NCBI GenBank assembly: GCA_964435015.1
Contig: CAYSXP010000015.1
Location: 6,340 to 70,339, forward strand
DNA length: 64,000 bases
Direction of reading: 5' to 3'
Source of the DNA: an uncultured Rikenellaceae bacterium
GTDB lineage: Bacteria; Bacteroidota; Bacteroidia; Bacteroidales; VadinHA17
Below the pieces are notes generated by a model. That model did not search any database, was not told where the DNA came from, and saw only the letters and a program-made list of their open reading frames with translations. Each line of letters begins with the position of its first letter. The stretch's first letter is position 1. The translations under genes and the position numbers were made by a program. Of the stretch, positions 3,926 through 62,606 are shown piece after piece.

Positions 3926-5374
3926 TTAGTTCATTGGAATTATCACGCATTTCCCGGGGTTGAAACCAACCGTAATTGTTTTTGTGCCTGCCAGAACGCT
4001 TACAGGTTCGCGGTTTGATCCGAAATCTGTACGGCGGATAAGCACACTGTCGCCCAGGGCAAGACCGGAAACCACAGTCCCGGGGTCGGCCGGCACATCA
4101 AAAGTTATGGGTATCCCTTTTTCGAGGAATCTTCCGTACTGCTGCGCTGCAGCATAGACTTCATGCACGGGCCTGATCTCTTCGGCATATTCGCTTCTGT
4201 TGCACCACATGAAAAAGGTATCGGTTCCTCTTAAAAGCATGTGCCAGAGGAGTTCCTTGTAACATTCCAGGCTCATCTGAACCGGTTCGGGTTTCATACT
4301 TGCGACTTTAACGGTGTTCCAATGTACAAAACTTATTACGGGAATACCTTGAGGCGTGCTTTTACCAGCATTGCCTGCGACCTTCAGCATATTGTAGAAC
4401 CACCTGTAATCAGTATTCTCAAAATCGTACCAGCCAAAGATCTGATCCCATGTATAGACAACAGGCATGGCGAAAGTGTAACCTGTCAGTGGAAAATCAT
4501 TGAACCATTTCCGGTATTTTGCATTTTGGTCGGCAATGAAGGGCTGCCCGTCAACATAATATTCAAAATAGTCGTACCAGTACCTGTACCCGTCGTTTGG
4601 ATAAACTGCGTAATTCCCTACCAGGGCATCGGGAAATCTGGATAATATGACCGAGCTGCAGGCATAATTCTGAAGGTAGGACCTCATCTCACGCATGGCC
4701 TTCTGGAATTCAGTGAAAGAAAAATCTTCGCCCAGATGCTGCCTGCACCTTTTGCATTTTTTCGATGCAGCAAAAGCACGATTGACCTCCAGGGGGCCGT
4801 CGATTTCCCAGTCAGTAAAAATGAAATCGACCTTCAATCCCTCCTTCCTGAATTTTTCCGTGAAATATTCAAAACGGGCACGGATTTCCTTTTTTCTGAA
4901 ATCCAGTGCAAAGGGACAACCCATTTTATGATCTCCGAAGCTGTCATCAAAGAAGGGATTGCCGTTATCATCAATATGTGCGGTTTTTATGTCGCCGTTG
5001 AAGAATGATTCCATGAGAGATGTTGCTTCAATATTCACCCTCTGGCCCAGTTTAGTCTGGGCCCGGGCAATTACCAGGCTTGTTTCGAGTGATGCCTCCT
5101 TTTCCCCGGCCTTCCAGCGTGAGATGAGTCCGATCCCGCGGCTGTCGAGTTCCCTTACAAGCATTTCAGCTTCAGTATCGGTAAGCTTGCCCGGATCAAT
5201 GGCAGGCCAGAGATAAAGGGGAAGCCGGTCGCCCCGGTTGAAGGTCAGGACAGTAGTGTTCTCAAGTATGACCTGAATGGTCTCCGGCCATTTTTTATTT
5301 TTCATTTCAGGGCCGGATCCAGTGCAATTTATCGCAAGGAGGCTCAGGCAGATTATTATCGGTTTGGTCTTCAT
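3926..5374 (-). CDS. Hypothetical lipoprotein with a possible glycoside-hydrolase-like TIM barrel
   Basis: 482-aa ORF; lipobox LAINC; VDFIFTDWEIDGP strand; CKRC; many Trp/Tyr residues; family not recognised. Confidence 0.6.
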   Translation of the reverse strand: MKTKPIIICLSLLAINCTGSGPEMKNKKWPETIQVILENTTVLTFNRGDRLPLYLWPAIDPGKLTDTEAEMLVRELDSRGIGLISRWKAGEKEASLETSLVIARAQTKLGQRVNIEATSLMESFFNGDIKTAHIDDNGNPFFDDSFGDHKMGCPFALDFRKKEIRARFEYFTEKFRKEGLKVDFIFTDWEIDGPLEVNRAFAASKKCKRCRQHLGEDFSFTEFQKAMREMRSYLQNYACSSVILSRFPDALVGNYAVYPNDGYRYWYDYFEYYVDGQPFIADQNAKYRKWFNDFPLTGYTFAMPVVYTWDQIFGWYDFENTDYRWFYNMLKVAGNAGKSTPQGIPVISFVHWNTVKVASMKPEPVQMSLECYKELLWHMLLRGTDTFFMWCNRSEYAEEIRPVHEVYAAAQQYGRFLEKGIPITFDVPADPGTVVSGLALGDSVLIRRTDFGSNREPVSVLAGTKTITVGFNPGKCVIIPMN

Positions 5375-5581
5375 AAAATACTAATGATTTCGCAAACTAT
5401 GGGTTTATTTTGAAAATAAGAAAGGTTCGGACTTCATATCAAATATAGGATTTAATTCATTAATATTGGATAATAACAGCTTGCGGGACTGATTGGAAGA
5501 AATCAGTCTAAATTATTCATTCTGAACAGGATGATTTATAGTATTTTTTATATTTGTTAATATTAATTAAACGAGCTTGAT

Positions 5582-8380
5582 ATGAGAAACATGTTCCTTG
5601 TACTCCTGGCATTTATTATTTTATCAGGCTGCAGCGATGGGAAAAAGAACCTTGTTGTACTTTCTGCTCCTGCAGGGAAAATGTATACTTCCATCAATAT
5701 GGGAGGCGTCACTGTTATTCCCAACGGACGTCTGCTCACACCGGCAGGAATGACTTTCTTGGTTGCACCGCATCCTTTCGGGCTGGCTCTGAGCAGTGAC
5801 GGTGAAACTGCTGTAACAGCCAACTCAGGTACAAACCCGCTCTCAATTTCAATAATAAGAAATCTTTCATTGTCTCCCGAGATCATGCAGATACCCCCAG
5901 GGCATTCCACCGATGCCGGAATTCTTGAGTCGGTTTTCATGGGCCTGGCTATCACCCCCGACAATTCGAAAGTGTATGTTGCTGGCGGACAGGCTAATAA
6001 AATCTTTGTTTTCGACCTTGTCACCGGAAATAAGACAGACTCAATCGACTGCGCCATATCAGCAGATGGGACTGACTATCCGGATGGTTACATAGGCGAT
6101 ATGGCTATAAGCAAAGACGGCAGGCATCTTTTTGCGGTGGACCAGATGAATTTCAGGATGCTGATCGCCGATACCAGGATCATGCAGGTAACCGCGTCAG
6201 TTCCCGTGGGTCGTTATCCCTTTGGACTGGCATTGACAAATGATGGAAAAAAGATCTATGTTGCAAACGTGGGAATGTTCCGGTACGGTAAGATAGGCAG
6301 CATAGAAGCAGACTCAGACTATGGAAAAGCCTTAAGCTTCCCGCCATTTGCTTATAACACGGAGGAAATGATAAATGGCATAACAACTGATTCGCTTGTA
6401 GTTCCCGGCCTGGGAGATCCCAACAGCGATCTGGCATTCTCGGTGTGGGGTATTGATATTGAGGATATCTCAAAACCGGTTGTGACTTCCAGGATAAAAA
6501 CCGGAAATCTTGTGGGCCAGATGGTTGAAGGTATTCCGGCAGTTGGCGGATCGAGCCCGAATTCAATGGCAGTTACATCTTCCTATGTATTTGTCAGCAA
6601 CGGGAACAATGATAACATCACGGTTATCGATATAAGAAACGATTCAGTGGTTAAAGAGATCTATCTGAAGCCCGATGATGCGGTTAAGCATTTCAGGGGA
6701 GTCATACCTTTCGGGCTTGACGTATCCCCCGACGGCAGGAAACTATTCGTGGCCGAATCCGGAATAAACGCCGTCGGCGTGATAGATATACCTTCGATGA
6801 GGGTAGTGGGACATATACCTTCCGGATGGTTTCCCTCAAAGGTAAAAGTTACACCCGACGGAAAAAGACTGATAGTAACAAATGCAAAGGGATACGGTTC
6901 AGGACCCAACGGCGGAAAGACTTTCAGCGAGGGCCCTGAGGGAACCTACATCGGGAGCCTGATGAAGGGAAGCATTTCGATAATCGACATTCCTTCGGAC
7001 AAAGAACTTAAAAGAATGACCAGGCAGGTGATCGCGAATAATTTCAGGAAGGATAAGGCTGCAAGGCTTCTGAAGGAGCGGAAAGGTAATCCCGTTCCCT
7101 TGTACGGCGGACAAAAGGAATCGCCGATAAAACATATAGTGTTTATTTCTAAGGAGAACCGGACATATGATGAAGTGTTCGGCCAGGTTGAAAAGGGGGA
7201 GGGCGATGCTTCAATTGCAAGATACGGGAGGAACGTCTCCTTTTCCAACAGGGATAAATCCATGAAAGTTGAGAATGCCGACGTTATGGCGAACCATCTG
7301 AAACTTGCATCTGAATTTGCGATAGCTGACAATTTTTATGTTGATGCCGATGTCTCAGCCGACGGCCACCGCTGGCTTGTAAACACATATCCGAATGAAT
7401 GGGTGGAGACCAGCGTTGCGGCCAGCTACGGAGGCAACAGGACCTACAACCCTGCGTCGAAGGCACCGGGAAGCCTTGGTATGAACGGTTCCGCGGGCGC
7501 AATATATCCCGAGGATTACAATGAGTCGGGCTCAATGTGGGATCATCTTGAAAGGAACAATATCGGCTTCTTTAATTTCGGTTTCAGTATCATGTTCGAA
7601 CCAGCTTTTTACCATGAATCATATAAGTATACGGGCATCAGGCAGTTTGCAAATTTCCCGGTTCCGACACCGATCTTCACTAGAACATCAAAAATTTACC
7701 CCACCTATAATATGATGATCCCTGACCAGTTCAGGGTAAGCCAGTTTATAAAGGAGTTCAGCGAAAAGTGGATGAACGGCAGCGACACCATGCCGCAGCT
7801 GCTGACGGTCATAATCCCGAACGACCACGGTGCAGGCGAGAGGCCTGAAGCCGGATATCCTTTCCGGGAGAGTTACATGGTTGATAATGATCTGGCAGTC
7901 GGGAGAATAATAGAATTTCTTTCGCATACGCCCTACTGGAAGAATATGGCGGTCTTCATTACGGAAGATGACGCCCAGAACGGCGTGGATCATGTGGACG
8001 CCCACCGCAGCATCCTGATGGTTATTTCACCCTATGTTAAAAAGGATTATGTGAGCAGGGTGCATTACAGCTTCGGGAGCATTTTCAAGACCTTCTGGAA
8101 CATTCTCGGACTGCCCTATTTGAATCAATATGATGCGGCTGCCACAGATCTGTCCGACATGTTCACGGCTGCTCCTGATTTTACACCCTATAAGGCATTG
8201 CCTCCCGACCTGCGGATCTTTGATCCGCAGAAAGCCCTCTCGCCGCTTGATGAGGATTTTGACTGGAAATCACTGGAAAAATCACCAATCCTTGATGATC
8301 CCAGGGAGATGGTTGAGGATCAGAAGGAGAAACCCGAGTACCGGCTGGAGGATCAGAAGAGTGATCCGGTTATCCGATAA
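5582..8380 (+). CDS. Bifunctional YncE/YVTN beta-propeller plus alkaline-phosphatase-superfamily phosphoesterase, lipoprotein
   Basis: Lipobox LSGC; repeated propeller blades (PFGLAL..DG, IYVAN, VGVID); phosphoesterase motifs IKHIVFISKENRTYDEVFG, SADGH, PNDH and EDDAQNGVDHVDAHRS. Confidence 0.88.
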   Translation: MRNMFLVLLAFIILSGCSDGKKNLVVLSAPAGKMYTSINMGGVTVIPNGRLLTPAGMTFLVAPHPFGLALSSDGETAVTANSGTNPLSISIIRNLSLSPEIMQIPPGHSTDAGILESVFMGLAITPDNSKVYVAGGQANKIFVFDLVTGNKTDSIDCAISADGTDYPDGYIGDMAISKDGRHLFAVDQMNFRMLIADTRIMQVTASVPVGRYPFGLALTNDGKKIYVANVGMFRYGKIGSIEADSDYGKALSFPPFAYNTEEMINGITTDSLVVPGLGDPNSDLAFSVWGIDIEDISKPVVTSRIKTGNLVGQMVEGIPAVGGSSPNSMAVTSSYVFVSNGNNDNITVIDIRNDSVVKEIYLKPDDAVKHFRGVIPFGLDVSPDGRKLFVAESGINAVGVIDIPSMRVVGHIPSGWFPSKVKVTPDGKRLIVTNAKGYGSGPNGGKTFSEGPEGTYIGSLMKGSISIIDIPSDKELKRMTRQVIANNFRKDKAARLLKERKGNPVPLYGGQKESPIKHIVFISKENRTYDEVFGQVEKGEGDASIARYGRNVSFSNRDKSMKVENADVMANHLKLASEFAIADNFYVDADVSADGHRWLVNTYPNEWVETSVAASYGGNRTYNPASKAPGSLGMNGSAGAIYPEDYNESGSMWDHLERNNIGFFNFGFSIMFEPAFYHESYKYTGIRQFANFPVPTPIFTRTSKIYPTYNMMIPDQFRVSQFIKEFSEKWMNGSDTMPQLLTVIIPNDHGAGERPEAGYPFRESYMVDNDLAVGRIIEFLSHTPYWKNMAVFITEDDAQNGVDHVDAHRSILMVISPYVKKDYVSRVHYSFGSIFKTFWNILGLPYLNQYDAAATDLSDMFTAAPDFTPYKALPPDLRIFDPQKALSPLDEDFDWKSLEKSPILDDPREMVEDQKEKPEYRLEDQKSDPVIR

Positions 8381-9114: not shown

Positions 9115-9609
9115 TCAATCTATGTATGCAACACAGTCGATCTGGACCAGAACGCCGTCGCGTCCCATCTGGTCAATTCCTGCTCCGCTGAAGGAGCGAG
9201 CAGGTTTCGGGTCGGGGAAAAATCTGCCATAGACTTCATTGAGAGGTGCCAGATTCTTATTTGGATCAGCAAGTGTCATGTGTACTTTTAAAACATTGGC
9301 CATTGTAGTGCCTGCTTTTTCCAGCTGATTCTTCATGTCTGTCAGAGCGCTTTCAATCTGCACTTTTATGTCCCCCGGTTCGGCACGCCTGTTGGCATAC
9401 CAGCCACCTATGCCGCTTAAAAAAACAAGATGACCCGAACGGATGCATAATGACAGGGGACTGGTTGTAGGGTAAACGCCGGGAACAGCCTCTTTTACGG
9501 GAGTCCATTCTTCCTTTGATTTATTTTTTTCAGGTCCGGTTATATCGTTGCCGATCACACCGGCGAGCGGAACCACGGACAGGTTTTTAAGAATTTCTCT
9601 TCTTTTCAT
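9115..9609 (-). CDS. RidA/YjgF family protein with a twin-arginine-like leader
   Basis: LVFLSGIG, NVLKVHMTL, NEVYGRFFPDPKPARS and VQIDCVAY; N-terminus MKRREILKNLSVVPLAG. Confidence 0.85.
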   Translation of the reverse strand: MKRREILKNLSVVPLAGVIGNDITGPEKNKSKEEWTPVKEAVPGVYPTTSPLSLCIRSGHLVFLSGIGGWYANRRAEPGDIKVQIESALTDMKNQLEKAGTTMANVLKVHMTLADPNKNLAPLNEVYGRFFPDPKPARSFSGAGIDQMGRDGVLVQIDCVAYID

Positions 9610-12380: not shown

Positions 12381-12671
12381 TCAGGGATTCAGATAATCCT
12401 TCAGCGCGTCCACGTATTCAACGAACTTCTGCCTTCCCAGGGGAGTGATCCGGCAGAGAGTCTGGGGATAATTATTGCTGAATTTTTTTTCCACGTCTAT
12501 GTAACCGGCTTCTTTAAGCTTCGATATCTGCACGCTCAGGTTCCCGGCCGTTGCACCTGTTTGTTCCCTGAGAAAGGTGAATTCGGCTGCCTCCACGCCT
12601 GCCAGCAGTGAGATCACTGCCAGCCTGAGCTGGGAATGAATGACCGGATCAAGCTCTTTAAACGGTCTCAT
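12381..12671 (-). CDS. Winged-helix transcriptional regulator (HTH_34/MarR-ArsR-like)
   Basis: LDPVIHSQLRLAVISLL, EFTFLREQTGATAGNLSVQISKLKEAGYI and ITPLG; overlaps the upstream gene's stop. Confidence 0.9.
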   Translation of the reverse strand: MRPFKELDPVIHSQLRLAVISLLAGVEAAEFTFLREQTGATAGNLSVQISKLKEAGYIDVEKKFSNNYPQTLCRITPLGRQKFVEYVDALKDYLNP

Positions 12672-13245
12672 GGTCAACCTTCCTTTTTAACATATACCCG
12701 GGTAACAGATATCCTGTAAACATCGCCACCGGAACAGCAAGAGCCGAAATTTCATTCTCCGCGAAACGTGCAATCAGTGCAAATATCCAGAAAGTTATCC
12801 CCCCTAATATCAACGGCCTGAATTTAATGATGAATCCCGAAAGGAAAGTCGGTATGGCTGCAAGTGTAAGTATAAACGGAGCAACAAACTGCATTTTATC
12901 TGACAGAATGATGAAAAGAACCACCCCTGCAATTAAAAAGGCCATCCATGTCCAGACATAGATATTGTCGGCATAAGTATAAAACCTTGCTTTCCTGCCT
13001 GTTTTGAATCCATATATCAGGGAGACAAACACTCCCGGTATTACAAAAAACCAGACATACCAGTAAGATGATATTTCTGTGAATTTCCAGAGTATGTACT
13101 CTGAAAGGCTGCACGCAAGTATGAGCCAGCCCCAGAAGAGAAAATGAAAGCTGCTGTTGCGGATATTCACTTTTGTCCTGCTGATCATATCTGTAATGAT
13201 CTTAAGACTCTCTTCTCCCGTCATTAATTTTTCATCAGTTTCCAT
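12658..13245 (-). CDS. Conserved multi-pass membrane protein paired with the HTH_34 regulator
   Basis: EESLKIITDMI N-terminus, FLFWGWL, about six hydrophobic segments, GYLLPGYML; start moved to ATG 13245. Confidence 0.75.
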   Translation of the reverse strand: METDEKLMTGEESLKIITDMISRTKVNIRNSSFHFLFWGWLILACSLSEYILWKFTEISSYWYVWFFVIPGVFVSLIYGFKTGRKARFYTYADNIYVWTWMAFLIAGVVLFIILSDKMQFVAPFILTLAAIPTFLSGFIIKFRPLILGGITFWIFALIARFAENEISALAVPVAMFTGYLLPGYMLKRKVDHETV

Positions 13246-13293
13246 AATAATTCTTAATTTTAATTGTGACAATTAATAATTATAAATATATTA

Positions 13294-24168: not shown

Positions 24169-24355
24169 GGTTCCCGTATCTTACCTGAAACTGCCGGAAT
24201 GCGTTTGGAATTTTAACTCAAAATCCTTTATTGATGAAACCCGCATGATTGACCAAAAACTCAGGCACGGCCGAATATAATAGCGTTCAATCATGTGTGG
24301 TTCCCTGCCCGGGGTGTCAGACAGGCGTCCGACCTTTATAAAAAACTATATACTT

Positions 24356-25777
24356 ATGAAACGACTCACAAGGAGAAAATTTGTGGAAAAGGCGATGATC
24401 ACCGGTGCCGGGGTGTCTGTACTGCCGGTGGTTGCATCTTCGGGAGAGAATAACCCTGACCACGCCGGTGATTCCCCGCCAATGAATGCCGGGCCCCGGG
24501 AAACTACAGGAAATATCGTCATTCAGCCGCCATCGGCAGCCAGGGATGCTGCTGAACACGATTTCGGCACCATGCGTCCATTGCGGATCAAAGCTCCTGT
24601 TGCCTTAACAGTTGGTCAGGATGAGGGGGATCTTCGGGGGAAGGATAATATTGTCCTTCAGGCTGCGGTCGATTATGTGGCAGGTCTGGGCGGAGGCACG
24701 GTACATATTCTGCCGGGTATCTATGAAATGCGGAATTCCCTGTTCCCCAGGGCAGGAGTGACAATAAGGGGATCGGGCGAAAAAACCATTCTGCGCAAAA
24801 CCCCCAGTGTCAGCAGCAAACTGGTTCGCGAGGCTGACTGGTATGAATATTGTGTTCAGGTGGAAGATCCGGAGGGATTCACGCGGGGGGGCGGGCTGGC
24901 TCTGAGTGCCGATAAAAAAAATGATCAGGAAGTAAGCCTTTTTACAATCACCGCAATAAAAGACAATATACTGTTTCTCGACCGGCGGACGGAAAAAAAC
25001 TTCTGGCCGGCGGATGATGCACGGGCTACCACGCGTTTCTCGATAATTCATGCTTTGAATGTTAATGATGTGAAAATTGAAGACATAATACTCGACGGCA
25101 ACCGTTCCGCGAATGAAAGGGTGAATGACAATTACGCCGCAGCAGTTTTCATTCAGTACTGCGACAACTGGAGCTTCAGGAACGTGACGGCCCGCAATTA
25201 CAACGGCGATGGCTTCAGCTTCCAGGTTTGCGATGATGCCTTTTTTGAAAACTGCCACTCACTGAACAATTTTGACCTTGGCTACCATCCGGGAAGCGGT
25301 TCCCAGCGTCCTGTCTTTAAAAACTGTACGGCACAGGGCAACAGCCAGGGTTTCTTCTGGTGCTGGGGCGTCTGCTACGGGATAGCCGAAAATTGCATAG
25401 CTTCGGGAAACATGAAATACGGGGTGAACTTCGGACACCGCGACACTGACAATATTCTCAGGAACTGCCTGGTTGAAAACAATGAAGAGATTGGAATCCT
25501 CTTCCGGAAGGAGGAAAATGAATTCCGGACAGGCGACCGCAATATAATTGAAAACTGCACGATCAGGGATAACGGGAAAGCCGGCCCCGGGACCGGAATC
25601 GATATCCAGTGGAAAACAAACGATATTACTGTCCGTGACTGTTTATTCGTGAACACACGGAACGGTCCTCAAAAGACCGCCATAAAAATAAGCGCTGATG
25701 CTCTTCGCATATCTGTCGAAAATAATAAGTTCTCAGGAGATGCCGTAAAAATTGAAGATCTGAGAAAGAAGAACTGA
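24356..25777 (+). CDS. Tat-exported right-handed parallel beta-helix protein (pectin-lyase-like fold)
   Basis: MKRLTRRKFVEK leader; LQAAVD...GGGTVHILPGIY; repeated N.GDG/N.GI rungs. Confidence 0.82.
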   Translation: MKRLTRRKFVEKAMITGAGVSVLPVVASSGENNPDHAGDSPPMNAGPRETTGNIVIQPPSAARDAAEHDFGTMRPLRIKAPVALTVGQDEGDLRGKDNIVLQAAVDYVAGLGGGTVHILPGIYEMRNSLFPRAGVTIRGSGEKTILRKTPSVSSKLVREADWYEYCVQVEDPEGFTRGGGLALSADKKNDQEVSLFTITAIKDNILFLDRRTEKNFWPADDARATTRFSIIHALNVNDVKIEDIILDGNRSANERVNDNYAAAVFIQYCDNWSFRNVTARNYNGDGFSFQVCDDAFFENCHSLNNFDLGYHPGSGSQRPVFKNCTAQGNSQGFFWCWGVCYGIAENCIASGNMKYGVNFGHRDTDNILRNCLVENNEEIGILFRKEENEFRTGDRNIIENCTIRDNGKAGPGTGIDIQWKTNDITVRDCLFVNTRNGPQKTAIKISADALRISVENNKFSGDAVKIEDLRKKN

Positions 25778-27553: not shown

Positions 27554-27675
27554 GATATCCTTTTACCGGATGGTACCGGTTGCAGATCATTTCAGGATTT
27601 AATGCAGCATGAACAAATTTGCTCAATGAAAAATCACTATATTTAATGGTGTTTTAATCTGAAAAATCCGAAATT

Positions 27676-29277
27676 ATGCAGATCGGCCGCAGGCGATTCA
27701 TCAGGTCATCGGTGCTGGCGGGTGCCGGATTGATGCTCTCCCCCGACAGGGGCTTCAGTGATGAAAAGGCTTCAGATTACTTTGGGATCAATCCTTTTAT
27801 CCTGATGGATCAGGATGCCGTTTTCATAATGAAAACAAATGTCGACGTTAAAACAAATTCCACCGCCATTAAAAAGGCAGGCCTGGATTTTGGCCGTTCA
27901 GTTTTTTGCATCACCGACGACGGGGAGAACGGGTTCCCCCTGACCAGCAGGATAGTGATTAAGCCAAACCTGACATGCCGGGCAAGAAACAGCTCTGCAT
28001 ACACCATCGAGAGTTCGATGGGAATTGTAACAGATGCTTATTTTGTTGAGGGTGTAATTGAAAGCCTGAAGGAACTAGGCCTGGCTTCCGGCCGGTTTTA
28101 TATCAGGGAAGTCAATTGCCCCGATGATCTGGCTGACGGAGGCTATATTTCAATGGCTTCACGAACTGGCATTGATCTGCAGGGGATCAATACCCCTGTT
28201 CAATATCTTAATCCCGAACAGATTAACTGGGTAAATGTCCCCGATGGAGTATTTTTCAGGAGAATTCCGTATTTGTGGCCCGTTAATGCTCCCGGAACTT
28301 TTCTGATCAATATTGCGAAATTTAAAACCCATGGAATGGGAATGACCCTGTGTGCAAAAAATCTTCAGGGCACCATAGCGGCAAATTACCAGGCTCATTG
28401 CAGTGCTTACGGCAAGAGCATTTCCGGGGTGAATGCCTCTGATCTTAATCCTGCAGCCGACTCCGCTATTCTTGCCAATTACGGCAGGCACAAGGCTGCC
28501 GGAATACCGCGATGGGACAAACCCGGAAATGATGGAGGTTTATGGCAGGAGACATGGGCCACCCGGTGCCTTGATAACAATTCAGCGACATTCGCGGGTT
28601 TGCACATAATAGAAGGAATATATGGCAGGGACGGTGATTTTATGACAGGGCCGGCACAGAACGGCCTGGCAACCGATTATATGACCAACCTCATAATTTT
28701 TGGGAGAAATCAGTTCCATGTCGATAACATTGGTCATTACCTCGGCGGGCATGAACCGGGCAACTTCGGGCTGTTCCACCTTGCACTCGAGAGAGGCATG
28801 GCAAAGACCATAAATCCCCGGGAAATACCCTTGTACGAATGGGACCCCCAGACCGGAGCCAGTCCTGTCAGTCTGGACAGCCTGCAGCGCTTCAGTCTGA
28901 AAACCTGCTATCTGCAAAGGAATTTCAACGGGCACGATGAACCCTACTGGCATCTTGTGAATGAACCCTATGAATACGGCACTGAAGGAGTGAATGACAC
29001 CGGTTTCAGCGGAAGCGGCTTTTTCCTTCAGCAGAATTTTCCTAATCCCGTCCATGCCACTACAACTGTCCTTTTCAGGCTTCCTTCACGCGGAAACGCA
29101 CGGGTTGAAATTCTCAGTGCCTCAGGTTCGCTGATTGATTTGCTTGCAAACAAGAGCCTTGACGGCGGAACTCATACTCTGACCTGGGATAGCAGGAGTA
29201 TCCCTTCAGGATCATATATCTGCCGTGTCAGTTTCAACAACATGAAAAGATCAATATGGATGATGGTCATACATTAG
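27676..29277 (+). CDS. DUF362 domain protein with Tat leader and T9SS type A C-terminal sorting domain
   Basis: GRRRFIRSSVLAGAG; IVIKPNLTC, INIAKFKTHG.GMTLCAKNLQG and IIEGIYG; C-terminal LQQNFPNP...WD....PSGSYICRV. Confidence 0.82.
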   Translation: MQIGRRRFIRSSVLAGAGLMLSPDRGFSDEKASDYFGINPFILMDQDAVFIMKTNVDVKTNSTAIKKAGLDFGRSVFCITDDGENGFPLTSRIVIKPNLTCRARNSSAYTIESSMGIVTDAYFVEGVIESLKELGLASGRFYIREVNCPDDLADGGYISMASRTGIDLQGINTPVQYLNPEQINWVNVPDGVFFRRIPYLWPVNAPGTFLINIAKFKTHGMGMTLCAKNLQGTIAANYQAHCSAYGKSISGVNASDLNPAADSAILANYGRHKAAGIPRWDKPGNDGGLWQETWATRCLDNNSATFAGLHIIEGIYGRDGDFMTGPAQNGLATDYMTNLIIFGRNQFHVDNIGHYLGGHEPGNFGLFHLALERGMAKTINPREIPLYEWDPQTGASPVSLDSLQRFSLKTCYLQRNFNGHDEPYWHLVNEPYEYGTEGVNDTGFSGSGFFLQQNFPNPVHATTTVLFRLPSRGNARVEILSASGSLIDLLANKSLDGGTHTLTWDSRSIPSGSYICRVSFNNMKRSIWMMVIH

Positions 29278-35291: not shown

Positions 35292-35807
35292 ATGATGAAG
35301 GAAAAAGACCTGATAGTTGACTGTCCTTCCCAGCAGGTAATACTTTATGCCGAAAAGAATGACGGCACATACGGACCGGTACAAACCGGATCATATACAA
35401 CCGGAAACCATATCTCAGAACATTTCAAAATTACTGATCACCTTTCCGGGGCGCTTCTTGAAAAACTCAGGGCAGGAGAAATAAGCCCTGTTTATTTTTA
35501 TATGATGATGGAAAGCCTTACGATTCCCGAACTGGCTGCGCGTGTGAGATTGTCAAGGAGATCTGTGAGGAGGCATCTCGAACCGGAAGGATTCCGGCGG
35601 TTAACAATTGATACACTGAAGCGTTATGCAGATGTTCTGAATATACCTGTTGCCAACATGTTTCAGATTATCCAAACTGTTGAAGACAAAAACTGGAACG
35701 CCGGGTTCCGCGAGGGATCAGGCTATGCTGACCCGGTCCGTATCACCCAGAAACCAACAGCCAATCCCCTGGTGGTTGAAACAGAACTAATTTCGGATCC
35801 GGAATGA
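35292..35807 (+). CDS. Conserved protein with an XRE-like HTH, the usual partner of BtrH_N genes
   Basis: LYA...G.Y..V.TG.Y, SPVYFYM, ELAARVRLSRRSVRRHLEP..F.RL...LKRYADVL; overlaps the next gene by 4 nt. Confidence 0.7.
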   Translation: MMKEKDLIVDCPSQQVILYAEKNDGTYGPVQTGSYTTGNHISEHFKITDHLSGALLEKLRAGEISPVYFYMMMESLTIPELAARVRLSRRSVRRHLEPEGFRRLTIDTLKRYADVLNIPVANMFQIIQTVEDKNWNAGFREGSGYADPVRITQKPTANPLVVETELISDPE

Positions 35808-36817
35808 CACAGATACCATTTAACCATGTGATGGCTGCACACTGCGAATCAGGGACCGTTGCAGCGTTACTAAACCATCACGGGCTGAAAATCCCGGAAC
35901 CCCTGGTATTTGGTATTTCCGGCGCCATCTTTTTCGGATACTTCAGAACCCCGATGATCGATTTCCCCATTTTTGTTGTAAGAAGCAAACCGGGCGACAT
36001 CCGGAAAAAATTCGCTGAAAGGACGGGAATCAGGTTTTATACCAAAACATACAGCGATCCCGGGAAAGCCGGTAAGGAACTTGATATGCTGCTGGAGAGG
36101 GGACAGCCTGTTGCCGTGCAGGTCGATTTCTTTTATATGAACTACTTCCCTTCCTGGCACAGGGTTCACATAAATGTTCATTTTGTTACAATCATTGGCA
36201 GGGAGGGGAACAAATATCTTGTAAGCGACAGTTATCATCCGCAGATTACTGAGCTGGACAGGGATTCTCTTATGAAGGGGCGGTTTGCCGGGGGGGCCAT
36301 GGCGCCGAAGGGCTTTATTTTTTATCCTGTCAGGGTTCCTGAAAGAATTGATATGAGGCAGGCTGTCATTGGCGGTATAAAGAGCGCCACATTCAACATG
36401 CTGAAAATACCGCTTCCTTTCCTGGGAGTCAGAGGTATCAGAAGATTTGCGGACAAAATCACTGAATGGCCCGGCTATGCCCGGGATGAAAATCAGCTTG
36501 CAGACAAGATGTTCAGGATAACCGTACTGCTGGAAGACCAGGGAACGGGAGGAGGAGGCTTCCGGTTCCTGTATGCCTCCTTCCTGCAGGAAGCAGCAAA
36601 AATTCTGAATTATCCCGTATTGAATGATTTTTCTAAAGAGATCATGAAAATAGGCGACGGGTGGCGGGAAATATCCCTGGCTGCTTCAAAAATTGCAAAA
36701 AACAGGGATTTTGGCAGGGAAAAATTTCTGGAGCTGAGTAAGATGATTAGCCATAAAGCGGATCTCGAAGAGTCTTTTTTTAGAAATCTGCGGAAAGAAA
36801 TTACAGCCACCAGGTAA
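35804..36817 (+). CDS. BtrH N-terminal domain/DUF4872 protein (papain-like acyltransferase or peptidase)
   Basis: AAHCESG, EPLVFGISGAIFFGY, VHFVTI, VSDS and EDQGTGGGGFRFLYASFLQEA. Confidence 0.87.
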   Translation: MTQIPFNHVMAAHCESGTVAALLNHHGLKIPEPLVFGISGAIFFGYFRTPMIDFPIFVVRSKPGDIRKKFAERTGIRFYTKTYSDPGKAGKELDMLLERGQPVAVQVDFFYMNYFPSWHRVHINVHFVTIIGREGNKYLVSDSYHPQITELDRDSLMKGRFAGGAMAPKGFIFYPVRVPERIDMRQAVIGGIKSATFNMLKIPLPFLGVRGIRRFADKITEWPGYARDENQLADKMFRITVLLEDQGTGGGGFRFLYASFLQEAAKILNYPVLNDFSKEIMKIGDGWREISLAASKIAKNRDFGREKFLELSKMISHKADLEESFFRNLRKEITATR

Positions 36818-49774: not shown

Positions 49775-51127
49775 ATGAAAACAAGGAAATTCACCCGCCG
49801 CCAGGTCATTGCGGCAACATCGGCAGGCTTCTTAGGTTCAATGCTGAATTATTCGTTCAGACCTTTTACCGTGGCAGGTACAAGCCAGTCGGTACTGGCA
49901 ATCAACGGAGGAGAAAAGGTCCACAAGGGACCATGGTCCGACTGGCCGTTCTGGGACAGGAGTGCGGAACCGGGTATTCTGGAAATGTTCCGTTCCGGGC
50001 GATGGTGGAGAGGTGAAGGTGAACATGTTGCCGTGTTTGAGAAAAAATACGCCGAACTTATGGGAGCCAGGAGCTGTCTTGCAACCGCCAGCGGCACAAC
50101 TTCCCTGATTGTTGCCATGGAGGCGCTTGGCGTCGATGCGGGCGATGAGGTTCTGATATCGCCGTACACATTCATTGCCACATACAATTCTGTATTTGCT
50201 CACAAGGCGCTGCCGGTATTTGTTGATTCAGATCCCGCGACCTTCCTGATGGATCCGGCAAAGATTGAGGAAAAGATCACCGACAGGACCGTGGCCATAG
50301 TACCCGTTCATATTTACGGTCTGCCTGTTGATATGGACAGTGTCAATTCCGTTGCGCGGAAGCATGGCATTAAGGTTATTGAGGATGCCTGTCAGGCATG
50401 GCTTGCGGAATACAGGGGGAAAAAAACAGGTACCCTGGGTGATCTGGGATGCTTCAGTTTCCAGAACTCCAAGCACCTGCCTGCTGGAGAAGGCGGGGCC
50501 ATCCTCAGCATGGATGAAGCCCTTATCGACAAGTGCTATGCGATCCATAATTGCGGCAGGGCAAGAGGCGCCATGAAGCCCGGTCCGGGATATCCCTACC
50601 GCGGAAGAAATTACAGGATGCAGCAATCGCAGGCTCTGATCCTGTTGTCTCAGATGAAAAGGATAGAAAAAGATAATGATGTCCGCCTTTCAAACGCATT
50701 GTATCTTGACGGAAAACTGCGGGAAATCCCCGGGATAATACCTTACCGGCCGGCAAACGGAGCCACGAGGGCAGTCTATCATCTTTATCCGTTCAGGTAT
50801 GTTAAGGAAGAATTCAATAATATTCCGAAAGAAAAACTCATAGAGGCACTTAACGCCGAAGGAATTCCCGCTACCGGCGGTTACGGGAAGCAGAATAAGG
50901 ACGGACTTATGGAAGAGGCCCTGACCTCCAGGGGCTATAAAAGACTCTTTTCGGAAGCAAGGCTCAGGCAGTGGAGAGAGCAGAACAATCTTCCTGGAAA
51001 TGACCAGCTTTGCGATCAGGCAGTAACATTATACCAGAGTATCCTGCTCGGATCGAAGGCCGACATGGATGATATTGTTAATGCAATAATAAAGATCCAT
51101 AAGCTCAAAAACACACTCAGGCCGTGA
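49775..51127 (+). CDS. DegT/DnrJ/EryC1/StrS PLP aminotransferase with a twin-arginine leader
   Basis: TRRQVIAA leader; ASGTTSL, GAGDEVLISPYTFIAT, PVHIYG, VIEDACQA, FSFQNSK (PLP lysine) and GEGG. Confidence 0.92.
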   Translation: MKTRKFTRRQVIAATSAGFLGSMLNYSFRPFTVAGTSQSVLAINGGEKVHKGPWSDWPFWDRSAEPGILEMFRSGRWWRGEGEHVAVFEKKYAELMGARSCLATASGTTSLIVAMEALGVDAGDEVLISPYTFIATYNSVFAHKALPVFVDSDPATFLMDPAKIEEKITDRTVAIVPVHIYGLPVDMDSVNSVARKHGIKVIEDACQAWLAEYRGKKTGTLGDLGCFSFQNSKHLPAGEGGAILSMDEALIDKCYAIHNCGRARGAMKPGPGYPYRGRNYRMQQSQALILLSQMKRIEKDNDVRLSNALYLDGKLREIPGIIPYRPANGATRAVYHLYPFRYVKEEFNNIPKEKLIEALNAEGIPATGGYGKQNKDGLMEEALTSRGYKRLFSEARLRQWREQNNLPGNDQLCDQAVTLYQSILLGSKADMDDIVNAIIKIHKLKNTLRP

Positions 51128-55033: not shown

Positions 55034-56347
55034 CTATTTCAGCCACCTGTCGAACCAGTCAAATGCTTCTTTCTGCATCTCCGCATCGAATTTATGCGGC
55101 CCGGGATAAAATGAACATTTGTATTTTTCCGGAGCGCCTGCCTTAGCATAAATTTCCCTGAGAATCTCATCAGCCTTCTTCATCTCAGGCAGGGTGTAAA
55201 GATCATCATCATTGTCGTTCAGCACCATTGTTGGAAGCGGCACCCTGAGCCCAAGTATTTCAGGAAAATCGAGTTCGCTGGGCAGCAGGGGCACATAGGT
55301 CATCCAGGTGTGTGTGAACGATTTATTCAGTACAAAATCGCGCCAGGTTGTCATGAATCCCACGCAGACTGCGCATTTGATCCTTTCGTCGGCGCCCCCG
55401 GTGAACACTGTCCTCATTCCTCCTCCTGACAGGCCAGCGCATCCGATCCGGCTGCTGTCCACATCCTTCCTGGAACATAGGATATCGAGGGCCACTGAGT
55501 CTTCAGCCATGAACACCCCGGGCCATGTTGTGCCAGCGCTGAAAAGCGACTTGGCCATTATGTGCTCATGCTCACGGGCCCAGTTATTATAGGCATTTAC
55601 GTTTGCCGGATCCTCCGGATCATCATCAGTCAGTCCCTGCCTCAGATGAACCGGCACATCCTGCATCATGACCCTCCTGCCCGCGAAAGGGAAAGCATCG
55701 GAAATAAGCACGGCATAGCCTCTTTTTGCTATCTCATTTGCCCATGCCCTGCCTTCATAATAGTGCTCCTGGTGATCTTTCATCAAAGGGTGCTGATCCT
55801 CGGAGGTTTTTGTAATTTTCCTGGTACCGAAATACTTGTTGCCTCCGTGATCGTGAAAGGCAAGAATCCCCGGCAGCTTTCCCCCTGCCCCTGCCGGCTT
55901 CAGGAGAATGGCGTCGGTGGGCCGTCCGTACGGAAGCTGCCATCTGAGCTCCTCGATATGGAGACCGTCGAAAGTATAGCTTTTTAACTGCTGAACTTCA
56001 GGGCTTCTACCGGTTTCAGGCATGGCCACGCGCTCAAAAAGCCTTTCCTTTGCAACAGGTTTCCACGATTTAACATCTTTCCATTCCTTGCGCCTGAAAG
56101 ACTGCCGGGGAAGATTTTTCCCCGTAAGTCCGGCGGCCCAGCTGCCATACACACCGATAAGACTTACCTGATCCTGCACGGTTATCGGCTTTTCCATATT
56201 CGTACTTTCCGTTTCGGAATCCATATATATATCATTTGATTCGTTATGCCGGCAATCGCTATTGATTTTCTCCGGAAAATCAAAACCCGCCATCCCTATA
56301 CCAAGGGCCCCGGCAGCTTTCAAAAACCCCCTCCGGTTGCTTTTCAT
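55034..56347 (-). CDS. Tat-exported alpha/beta hydrolase (dienelactone-hydrolase/esterase-like)
   Basis: NRRGFLK leader; LPGILAFHDHGG, nucleophile elbow GLSGGG, DDDLY and YPGPHKF. Confidence 0.87.
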   Translation of the reverse strand: MKSNRRGFLKAAGALGIGMAGFDFPEKINSDCRHNESNDIYMDSETESTNMEKPITVQDQVSLIGVYGSWAAGLTGKNLPRQSFRRKEWKDVKSWKPVAKERLFERVAMPETGRSPEVQQLKSYTFDGLHIEELRWQLPYGRPTDAILLKPAGAGGKLPGILAFHDHGGNKYFGTRKITKTSEDQHPLMKDHQEHYYEGRAWANEIAKRGYAVLISDAFPFAGRRVMMQDVPVHLRQGLTDDDPEDPANVNAYNNWAREHEHIMAKSLFSAGTTWPGVFMAEDSVALDILCSRKDVDSSRIGCAGLSGGGMRTVFTGGADERIKCAVCVGFMTTWRDFVLNKSFTHTWMTYVPLLPSELDFPEILGLRVPLPTMVLNDNDDDLYTLPEMKKADEILREIYAKAGAPEKYKCSFYPGPHKFDAEMQKEAFDWFDRWLK

Positions 56348-61509: not shown

Positions 61510-61793
61510 GGAGAATTTTACAATCTGTTTACTTTTTACTTAATGACGTCCCGGATCAGAAAATGATGCAAAGCTAAGCTATTTGGAATCATTCTTGACA
61601 ATAAGGTTAAAAACCCGTGCACCCCCTTCGTTTACCGGCATTTTCCCGTGTTTTCGGATTTTTTTCATCAGAGGGTATATCATGAAAGCAGATATCCCTG
61701 AGCTGATTAATTTTATGCCTGATCAGACAATTGTGGTTTTACCGGGATGGCGGCAATTCAAATTTTGCTATCTTGGTTCAAAAACTCAGGACA

Positions 61794-62606
61794 ATGTTAT
61801 CCAGAAGATCATTTTTATTGAAAAGCGCAGCGGCTGCATCTGCAGCATTGATGGCACAGACTTCATTGGCACTGGCCGTGACTTTGGCCGGATCTTCACC
61901 GCTCACAGGCAAGAAAGTACTGTTCGTCTGGGGAGGATGGATGGGGCATGAGCCTGACAAGTGCCGTGATATATTTGTTCCATGGCTCCGGTCCGAGGGG
62001 GCGGTTGTAACGGTTTCCGACACCCTGGAATCGTATGTTAAGCTTGATATGAAGAATGAAGCCGACCTGATCATCCAGGCCTGGACCATGGGGCAGATAG
62101 AGGGAGAACAGGAGAAAGCTCTTCTTGAGGCTGTCTCGTCAGGGACCGGTATTGCCGGGTGGCACGGGGGGCTGGGTGACTCGTTCCGTAACAATACCGA
62201 ATACCAGTTCATGGCAGGCGGTCAATGGGTGGCGCATCCCGGCGGGGTGATTGATTACAGGGTCAATATAACGGATCATGACGATCCTGTCACGAAGGGC
62301 CTTGCTGATTTTGACATGCATTCCGAACAGTATTACATGCATGTTGATCCGAATGTCAAAGTGCTTGCAACAACAACCTTCAGCGACAAATATGCCGGCT
62401 GGATAGGCGGAAGCGTGGTACCTGTTGCTTGGAAGAAATACTATGGAAGGGGGCGCGTTTTTTATTCGTCGCTGGGCCATGTTGCATCCGATTTCTCTGT
62501 TCCCCAGGCGCTTGAGATCATGAAACGCGGAATCCGATGGGCCTGCATGAGCCGGTATGAACCGGTTGAACAATGGCAGCAGCCTGTCTACGGAAGGCTG
62601 CGCTGA
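61794..62606 (+). CDS. Tat-exported ThuA-like domain protein
   Basis: MLSRRSFLLK leader; VLFVWGGWMGHEP, GWHGGLGDSFR, GGQWVAHPG, SEQYYMHVDP and GRVFYSSLGH. Confidence 0.9.
   Translation: MLSRRSFLLKSAAAASAALMAQTSLALAVTLAGSSPLTGKKVLFVWGGWMGHEPDKCRDIFVPWLRSEGAVVTVSDTLESYVKLDMKNEADLIIQAWTMGQIEGEQEKALLEAVSSGTGIAGWHGGLGDSFRNNTEYQFMAGGQWVAHPGGVIDYRVNITDHDDPVTKGLADFDMHSEQYYMHVDPNVKVLATTTFSDKYAGWIGGSVVPVAWKKYYGRGRVFYSSLGHVASDFSVPQALEIMKRGIRWACMSRYEPVEQWQQPVYGRLR

Follow-up and report, generated by a model that had tools for sequence, protein, structure and literature searches.

Type IX secretion system (T9SS) cargo is described in reviews as entering the periplasm through Sec (PMC9127263, PMC9251779), and the T9GPred rules, drawn from 102 experimentally shown cargo proteins, demand a Sec signal and exclude any twin-arginine translocation (Tat) signal. 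Canonical T9SS cargo of type A, such as the gingipains, RemA, mirolase and PorZ, ends in a C-terminal beta-sandwich of ~80 amino acids (aa) that follows a flexible linker and matches the TIGR04183 model. Secretion by Tat and the type II secretion system (T2SS) is the closest precedent for a route that brings a folded protein across the inner membrane by Tat before an outer-membrane system accepting folded cargo takes over. As regards enzymes, the DUF362 family and DUF2088, the family of the lactate racemase LarA and its homologues, which are nickel-pincer nucleotide enzymes (DUF2088/PF09861), both belong to Pfam clan CL0471 (PMC11770544), and proteins that combine DUF362 with a carbohydrate-binding module of family 9 (CBM9) and a dockerin were found in lignocellulose enrichments by a metagenomic study (PMC5742341). 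Here we analyze a gene from an uncultured Rikenellaceae bacterium, located in a 64-kb stretch of contig CAYSXP010000015.1 that we refer to as the window. The product of the open reading frame (ORF) 27676-29277 (+) has three parts, an N-terminal twin-arginine leader, a DUF362 core and a C-terminal T9SS sorting domain of type A. We consider it probable that this protein is an enzyme of the LarA/DUF362 clan that acquires its fold, and probably a cofactor, in the cytoplasm; Tat would carry it across the inner membrane, and T9SS would then secrete it or attach it to the cell surface.

The protein resembles each of the described systems in part. It shares with canonical type A cargo the C-terminal beta-sandwich, the flexible linker and the TIGR04183 match, but its leader is of the twin-arginine and not of the Sec type, and the T9GPred rules would reject it. 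The similarity to Tat-T2SS secretion extends to the first step and to the acceptance of folded cargo, whereas the second step here would be taken by T9SS, with a discrete cleavable C-terminal domain (CTD) as the signal. LarA provides the best fold match in the PDB and is itself scored above threshold by the DUF362 model; in contrast, the present protein has no PF09861 or LarA_C match, and the cofactor-binding residues of LarA cannot be equated with residues of this core because the subfamily profile fails to reach LarA. LarA proteins are also cytoplasmic, whereas the DUF362 protein described here carries export signals. In common with the DUF362-CBM9-dockerin proteins it has a DUF362 core sent outside the cell and an association with carbohydrate binding or degradation, but those proteins are anchored by dockerins in cellulosomes, whereas this one has a T9SS CTD and no CBM.

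The ORF encodes 533 aa, and its translation agrees exactly with the earlier description. An in-frame stop lies upstream at 27658, and the ATG at 27676 is the sole start downstream of it that retains the leader. The initial annotation had proposed a GRRRFIR leader with a hydrophobic core, a DUF362 core and a type A CTD, and this architecture is confirmed by the translation and by the Pfam and NCBIfam scores. On the plus strand, the predicted Tat-type signal peptide occupies residues 1-28 (27676..27759), as delimited by the translation and the family consensus, and is followed by the catalytic core at residues 33-436 (27772..28983), defined by a core-only AlphaFold (AF2) model, its fold match and residue conservation. 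The PF04015 match to DUF362 lies within this core at residues 93-352 (27952..28731). A flexible Gly/Ser/Thr/Asn-rich linker of low model confidence, GTEGVNDTGFSGSGFFL, spans residues 437-453 (28984..29034), and the type A sorting domain, an immunoglobulin (Ig)-like beta-sandwich recognized by TIGR04183 and by the model, takes up residues 454-533 (29035..29274). The full-length AF2 model has a predicted local distance difference test (pLDDT) score of 81.5. Comparison with the 83% identical orthologue gives a ratio of nonsynonymous to synonymous substitution rates (dN/dS) of 0.085 in both the leader and the core and of 0.38 in the C-terminal domain, so that the leader and the CTD are both under purifying selection. 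The linker has a dN/dS of ~1.3 against the L006 orthologue, a value that is not interpretable for 17 codons only.

The leader, MQIGRRRFIRSSVLAGAGLMLSPDRGFS, has the twin-arginine motif G4-R-R-R-F-I-R10 in its n-region (nt 27685-27705). The h-region that follows, SSVLAGAGLMLS, comprises 12 uncharged residues with a mean Kyte-Doolittle value of 1.49 (family mean 1.27 +/- 0.29); it is weakly to moderately hydrophobic and rich in Gly, Ala and Ser, as Tat leaders are. The leader contains no Cys, therefore it has no lipobox and is not a lipoprotein signal. Signal peptidase I likely cuts after residue 28, at a predicted position between the Ser and the Asp of G-F-S-D-E; this site satisfies the -3/-1 rule, and homologues have AFS, ALD, AMS or SFG in the equivalent place. 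In the AF2 model residues 5-21 form a helix and residues 22-32 are disordered.

The strongest argument for Tat comes from a census of position-specific counts in 185 N-complete relatives, composed of close homologues and 50%-identity representatives. The arginine pair, usually at residues 4-6, is found in 180 of the 185 down to ~30% identity, and 178 of the 180 RR-bearing leaders have Phe at position +3, frequencies that place these leader features beyond chance; the pair is missing only from five entries that are aberrant or cut short at the N-terminus. The consensus, [NTSD]-R-R-x-F-[VIL]-[QKR]-[ST], has N/T/S/D at -1, V/I/L at +4 and Q/K/R at +5, and continues past +5 with [ST][SA] and an uncharged stretch of Gly, Ala, Ser and Leu. 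The canonical Tat motif is S/T-R-R-x-F-L-K, and by its sequence the family consensus is this motif. RR-x-F is retained by orthologues in Bacteroidota, Ignavibacteriota, Verrucomicrobiota and Anaerolineales, and it is this degree of invariance across at least four phyla that argues most for Tat. Two hidden Markov models (HMMs) of Tat leaders were applied, PF10518 with a gathering threshold (GA) of 22.7 bits and TIGR01409 with a cutoff of 16.7 bits. Three of the four orthologue leaders tested (P0112, P0142 and one of MTITRRQFVQ type) exceed both cutoffs, with 18.4-27.4 bits for TIGR01409 and 23.3-30.5 bits for PF10518, and the fourth, P0121, falls slightly under both. The precomputed annotation of P0112 also includes PF10518, for which P0129 at 21.8 bits is slightly under the cutoff.

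These counts also bear on the best of the alternatives, namely that the leader is an ordinary Sec signal in which the arginines merely provide a positive n-region, and that the protein is a conventional Sec-then-T9SS cargo. Some RR-containing leaders do use Sec, and the copy in the window is below threshold for both Tat HMMs. Moreover, a Tat signal is lacking from every one of the 102 proteins that T9GPred draws on as cargo shown by experiment, and reviews, in line with the initial annotation, give Sec as the first step. We nevertheless regard this explanation as unlikely, given the near-constant arginine pair and Phe, followed by [VIL] and [QKR], in at least four phyla and at ~30% identity, the weakly hydrophobic, Gly/Ala/Ser-rich h-region, and the several orthologues that score above the cutoffs of both Tat models. 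A Sec leader, in contrast, tolerates the exchange of Lys for Arg and has no need of a Phe.

At the other end of the protein, residues 455-525 of 533 match TIGR04183, the model of the type A sorting domain, with 26.4 bits (cutoff 23), and the T9SS tail region model NF052323 scores 32.3 bits; the Pfam model PF18962 (Por_Secre_tail) stops just short of its threshold. QNFPNP begins at residue 452 (nt 29029), and PSGSYICRV lies close to the C-terminus. The AF2 model has stacked beta-strands at residues 462-531 (pLDDT 82-91), preceded by a disordered Gly/Ser-rich linker segment at residues 436-447 with pLDDT below 50; the linker as a whole would be the expected region of CTD removal by a PorU-type sortase. 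When the full-length model was compared with the PDB by Foldseek, only this Ig-like tail was matched, by Ig-like domains among which are the CTDs of PorZ (5m11), mirolase (8qb1) and RemA on the T9SS translocon (8gl6_D), with E-values of ~1e-2 to 1e-3. An HMM built from the family tails detects the CTD in 109/109 close homologues complete at both ends and in 13/19 more distant representatives.

A second alternative holds that the Ig-like C-terminal domain is not a T9SS signal in this organism, either because there is no T9SS or because the domain is a binding or structural module, and that the protein stays in the periplasm. Some Bacteroidales are without T9SS, no T9SS component is encoded in the window or in the compared loci, the PF18962 score is slightly sub-threshold, and the FlgD Ig-like model matches weakly. 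This explanation appears distinctly improbable to us in view of the TIGR04183 score and of a domain that is strictly C-terminal, lies behind a disordered linker, resembles solved CTDs, is kept under purifying selection by all complete close homologues, and is absent from orthologues in phyla that have no T9SS.

This last point follows from the distribution of the family. A search of 5.8 billion proteins gave 1848 matches at E<=1e-5, and the best 120 of these are nearly all 520-555 aa long and 54-99% identical, come from metagenome-assembled genomes (MAGs) of Bacteroidales or Bacteroidota, and are named at most 'DUF362 domain-containing protein'. When 1.84 billion representatives at 50% identity were scanned exhaustively, 93 clusters passed E<=1e-30 and 266 clusters passed E<=1e-10; the subfamily is distinct and not huge. 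Among contigs sampled at one genome per species, the full-length form, with a match reaching residue 520-533, is found in MAGs that bear the labels Bacteroidales, Rikenellaceae, Bacteroidota or Ignavibacteria. The CTD-bearing orthologues are labelled Bacteroidota or Ignavibacteriota, apart from one MAG labelled Bacillota and some unclassified ones. In Verrucomicrobiota and Anaerolineales, the match of the orthologues ends at residue 434, and these proteins have a Tat leader and no CTD. Some of the CTD-less members end shortly past the core motif HLVNEP-x-x-Y; an Anaerolineaceae orthologue (L032 2292-3752) has a Tat leader, a lipobox (LKAC) and a Thr/Pro-rich linker, and a Verrucomicrobia orthologue (L029 9773-11596) combines a Tat leader with another kind of C-terminal extension, ~90 aa long and matched by no Pfam family. 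Judged by these predicted signals, the family appears destined for the cell exterior in every lineage, and the CTD looks like the device used by lineages of the Fibrobacteres-Chlorobi-Bacteroidetes (FCB) group. In the Ignavibacteria loci L035 and L036, the orthologues are adjoined by other CTD proteins with ordinary Sec leaders.

Several further observations concern unusual members of the family. Locus L024 encodes tandem DUF362 paralogues at 4374-6020 and 6105-7712, the second of which, like P0150, unites three sorting signals in a single chain, namely a lipobox Cys (…GLIGQGC…) in addition to the Tat motif and the T9SS CTD. The Bacillota-labelled MAG (L019) has a full-length CTD-bearing orthologue of 53% identity; Bacillota are, to our knowledge, a phylum without T9SS, and the contig is probably misbinned.

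The identification of the core as DUF362 is secured by PF04015, which scores 56.5 bits (E 5e-15, cutoff 24) and covers profile positions 1-197 of 200. The core is a two-lobed alpha/beta domain with a subfamily-specific C-terminal extension (GHEPGNFGLFH ... HLVNEPYEY), and the residues conserved throughout the family are K96-P-N98, N212, K217, H219, K228-N-x-Q-G232, C242, E292, D300, E313, D350 and H359. An AF2 model of the core only (residues 33-440) reached pLDDT 87.8 and a predicted template modelling (TM) score of 0.91. Its best fold match in the PDB is LarA of Isosphaera pallida (9eia_B), a weak match (E 0.023, probability 0.87, 322 columns, TM 0.34) that emerged only with the core-only model, as the Ig-like tail dominated the full-length Foldseek search. 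The two families are linked directly at the sequence level by the match of genuine LarA proteins to the Pfam DUF362 model: two of them, nickel-dependent lactate racemases from Loigolactobacillus (P0275 and P0277), score 25.8-26.1 bits, above the GA of 24, and the matched residues 82-245 span the active-site His and Lys.

The remaining comparisons with LarA gave negative results. PDB sequence searches with the protein and two family profiles returned only weak CTD or FlgD-like matches and no solved structure of the core. The protein has no PF09861 (Lar_N) or LarA_C (PF21113) match at E<=1. The family HMM has no significant match in an hmmsearch against 120 LarA proteins, and hhalign of the family profile against LarA is not significant, either in full or restricted to the motif region. 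The LarA query was that of L. plantarum, identical to 5huq over 424 native residues; a Smith-Waterman comparison of the core with LarA, evaluated with shuffles, is at noise level (z = 0.68). The spacing H219-x8-K228-x13-C242 resembles LarA H174-x9-K184-x15-H200, which is a lead only, as no significant alignment stands behind the resemblance. We conclude that the core belongs to the LarA/DUF362 clan as a divergent member. An isomerase-type activity, as suggested in the initial annotation, would by analogy be compatible with this membership.

The protein has eight Cys residues (78, 101, 148, 226, 242, 298, 411 and 516) and no close pairs among them. The initial annotation had pointed to five Cys in motif-like positions, in the strings KPNLTC, REVNC, TLC, AHC and TRC; all five are present, as C101, C148, C226, C242 and C298, and all are conserved among homologues of at least 54% identity, but they do not form a conserved motif. 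In a set of 53 family members down to ~30% identity, C242 is conserved in 50/52 and C226 in 39/52 sequences, while C298 (21/53), C148 (17/52) and C101 (14/48) are replaced in most of the distant members. There is no CxxC-type spacing in the protein, and no ferredoxin (Fer4) domain was matched in the Pfam scan. The one invariant residue, C242, is more in keeping with one catalytic or ligand function than with an Fe-S cluster. Tat is established as the usual route of Fe-S proteins. Pfam notes DUF362 in some iron-sulfur proteins, a remark that reportedly concerns members also bearing iron-sulfur-binding domains (PMC5742341). In spite of these links, and of the conservation seen in close homologues, we reject on Cys conservation the proposal that the five Cys ligate an iron-sulfur cluster in an extracellular redox enzyme and hold it to be highly improbable, since only C242 and C226 persist family-wide, CxxC spacing and a Fer4 domain are both lacking, and, strict anaerobes excepted, an extracellular cluster that is labile to oxygen is not plausible; with this proposal goes the inference of an Fe-S metallo-protein made in the initial annotation.

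For the Tat-then-T9SS route, the following two steps can be proposed. The enzyme would fold while still in the cytoplasm, probably with a cofactor or metal tightly bound to it, and the twin-arginine signal would direct it across the inner membrane via Tat, with signal peptidase I trimming the leader near residue 28. The type A CTD would then mark the folded periplasmic intermediate for the T9SS translocon and be cleaved off within the flexible linker, so that the enzyme may be released or held at the cell surface. The reaction may be isomerase- or epimerase-like, or otherwise cofactor-dependent, on an extracellular glycan-derived substrate; we suggest such a substrate because the gene lies among those for secreted glycan-degrading enzymes and because DUF362-CBM9-dockerin proteins have been reported. 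A more specific proposal, which is tempting and in our estimate rather unlikely to hold in all its parts, is that these proteins may constitute the first recognized class of Tat-dependent T9SS cargo, with a nickel-pincer-type organometallic cofactor or another metal centre ligated by C242 with K228 and H219, whose loading into the LarA-like core before export would be the reason for the use of Tat, and may act as extracellular epimerases or isomerases on glycan-derived substrates.

A number of observations weigh against the Tat-then-T9SS reading. The leader of the window copy scores 14.1 bits with PF10518, below the GA, and has no TIGR01409 match at E<=10. PF18962 gives 25.9 bits over residues 455-523, which is 1.1 bits under its GA of 27. 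No tatA, tatC or T9SS gene is present within the 64-kb window or the compared loci, and a regular-expression search of the window and all loci compared found no TatA-like motif. With respect to the enzyme, no cofactor was identified for the core, and residue equivalence is not established for the LarA sites that were sought, namely the cofactor-tethering Lys184, the Ni-binding His200 and the catalytic His108 and His174. All relatives come from MAGs. The functional guess is weakened by a local gene order that is shared with the 83% orthologue and not beyond. Contigs assembled from four RNA-seq runs of sludge contain the gene at >=99% identity, at low and flat depth, which is weak evidence of transcription as DNA carry-over is possible. 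The Tat-then-T9SS route nonetheless remains the best-fitting reading, because RR-x-F is conserved across phyla, the CTD is restricted to FCB-group orthologues, and both signals are under purifying selection. The route proposed in the initial annotation is accordingly retained as probable, without the metallo-protein part.

Our literature search, which covered a minority of the subscription journals, turned up no report of T9SS cargo that depends on Tat. The pairing of Tat and T9SS signals, conserved in more than 100 relatives, suggests an additional export route. It would imply that T9SS, like T2SS, can accept proteins that Tat delivers already folded and possibly loaded with a cofactor, and no new mechanism is needed for this, since T9SS recognizes a folded CTD on folded periplasmic proteins. 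Predictions of Bacteroidota and Ignavibacteriota secretomes would overlook such proteins, as at least one pipeline drops CTD proteins that have a Tat signal. For the DUF362 family, the analysis provides a set of defined conserved residues and a predicted cellular address, outside the cytoplasm and at the surface, amid glycan-degrading enzymes. The gain in knowledge is moderate, the route being one that is expected from T9SS recognition of folded cargo and that is predicted here from sequence.

The genomic context hints loosely at extracellular breakdown of glycans or glycoconjugates. The gene is preceded by a gene for a DUF4956 membrane protein and followed by a glycoside hydrolase (GH) gene of family GH18 and then by araA and araD. 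The window further encodes GH26, GH106, GH97, GH2 and GH92 proteins, a sulfatase and a CBM9/DUF5916 protein. Orthologues elsewhere were found in clusters with ceramidase, CBM9 and GH5 genes, and another one beside a SusC/SusD locus. MAG MFD05442.bin.2.79 has two paralogous clusters of ~12 genes (L004/L013 and L037/L015) in the order EamA, GFO/IDH/MocA, PIG-L deacetylase, a hypothetical protein bearing a Tat leader, another hypothetical protein, DegT, DUF4432, DUF362-CTD, neutral ceramidase, DegT, CBM9 and amino-acid permease, which looks like an amino-sugar or glycolipid pathway; the CBM9 protein is three genes away from the orthologues in L004 and L037. No operon is conserved across the compared loci, and neither lar genes nor a chaperone gene were found nearby.

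Five further proteins in the window have RR-type leaders: a beta-helix/NosD-like, a RidA-like and a ThuA-like protein, a DegT aminotransferase and an alpha/beta hydrolase. Their presence makes a working Tat pathway in the source organism likely. The leader of the alpha/beta hydrolase scores 21.6 bits with TIGR01409 and is the sole one of the five above the cutoff. The RidA/L-PSP gene is located at 9115-9609 (-), the gene for the DegT/DnrJ/EryC1 aminotransferase, which is pyridoxal phosphate-dependent, at 49775-51127 (+), the alpha/beta hydrolase gene at 55034-56347 (-) and the ThuA-like gene at 61731-62606 (+). The right-handed beta-helix/NosD-like protein is encoded two genes upstream of the DUF362 gene at 24293-25777 (+) and has the leader MKRLTRRKFVEKAMITGAGVSVLPVVASS and no CTD; its probable true start is the ATG at 24356, and start calls differ between the orthologous loci (460-495 aa). 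Six RR-leader genes, including the DUF362 gene, among the ~44 in the window make it unusually Tat-rich, and an exported DegT aminotransferase is unusual in itself.

Other genes of the window gave minor observations. A BtrH_N + DUF4872 protein, similar to the butirosin biosynthesis protein H, is encoded at 35804-36817 (+) after an ABC-2 transporter pair, which is unexpected amid catabolic genes. Two ORFs match no Pfam family at the thresholds applied: 3926-5374 (-), which encodes 482 aa with a lipoprotein-like leader, and 12658-13272 (-), which encodes 204 aa.

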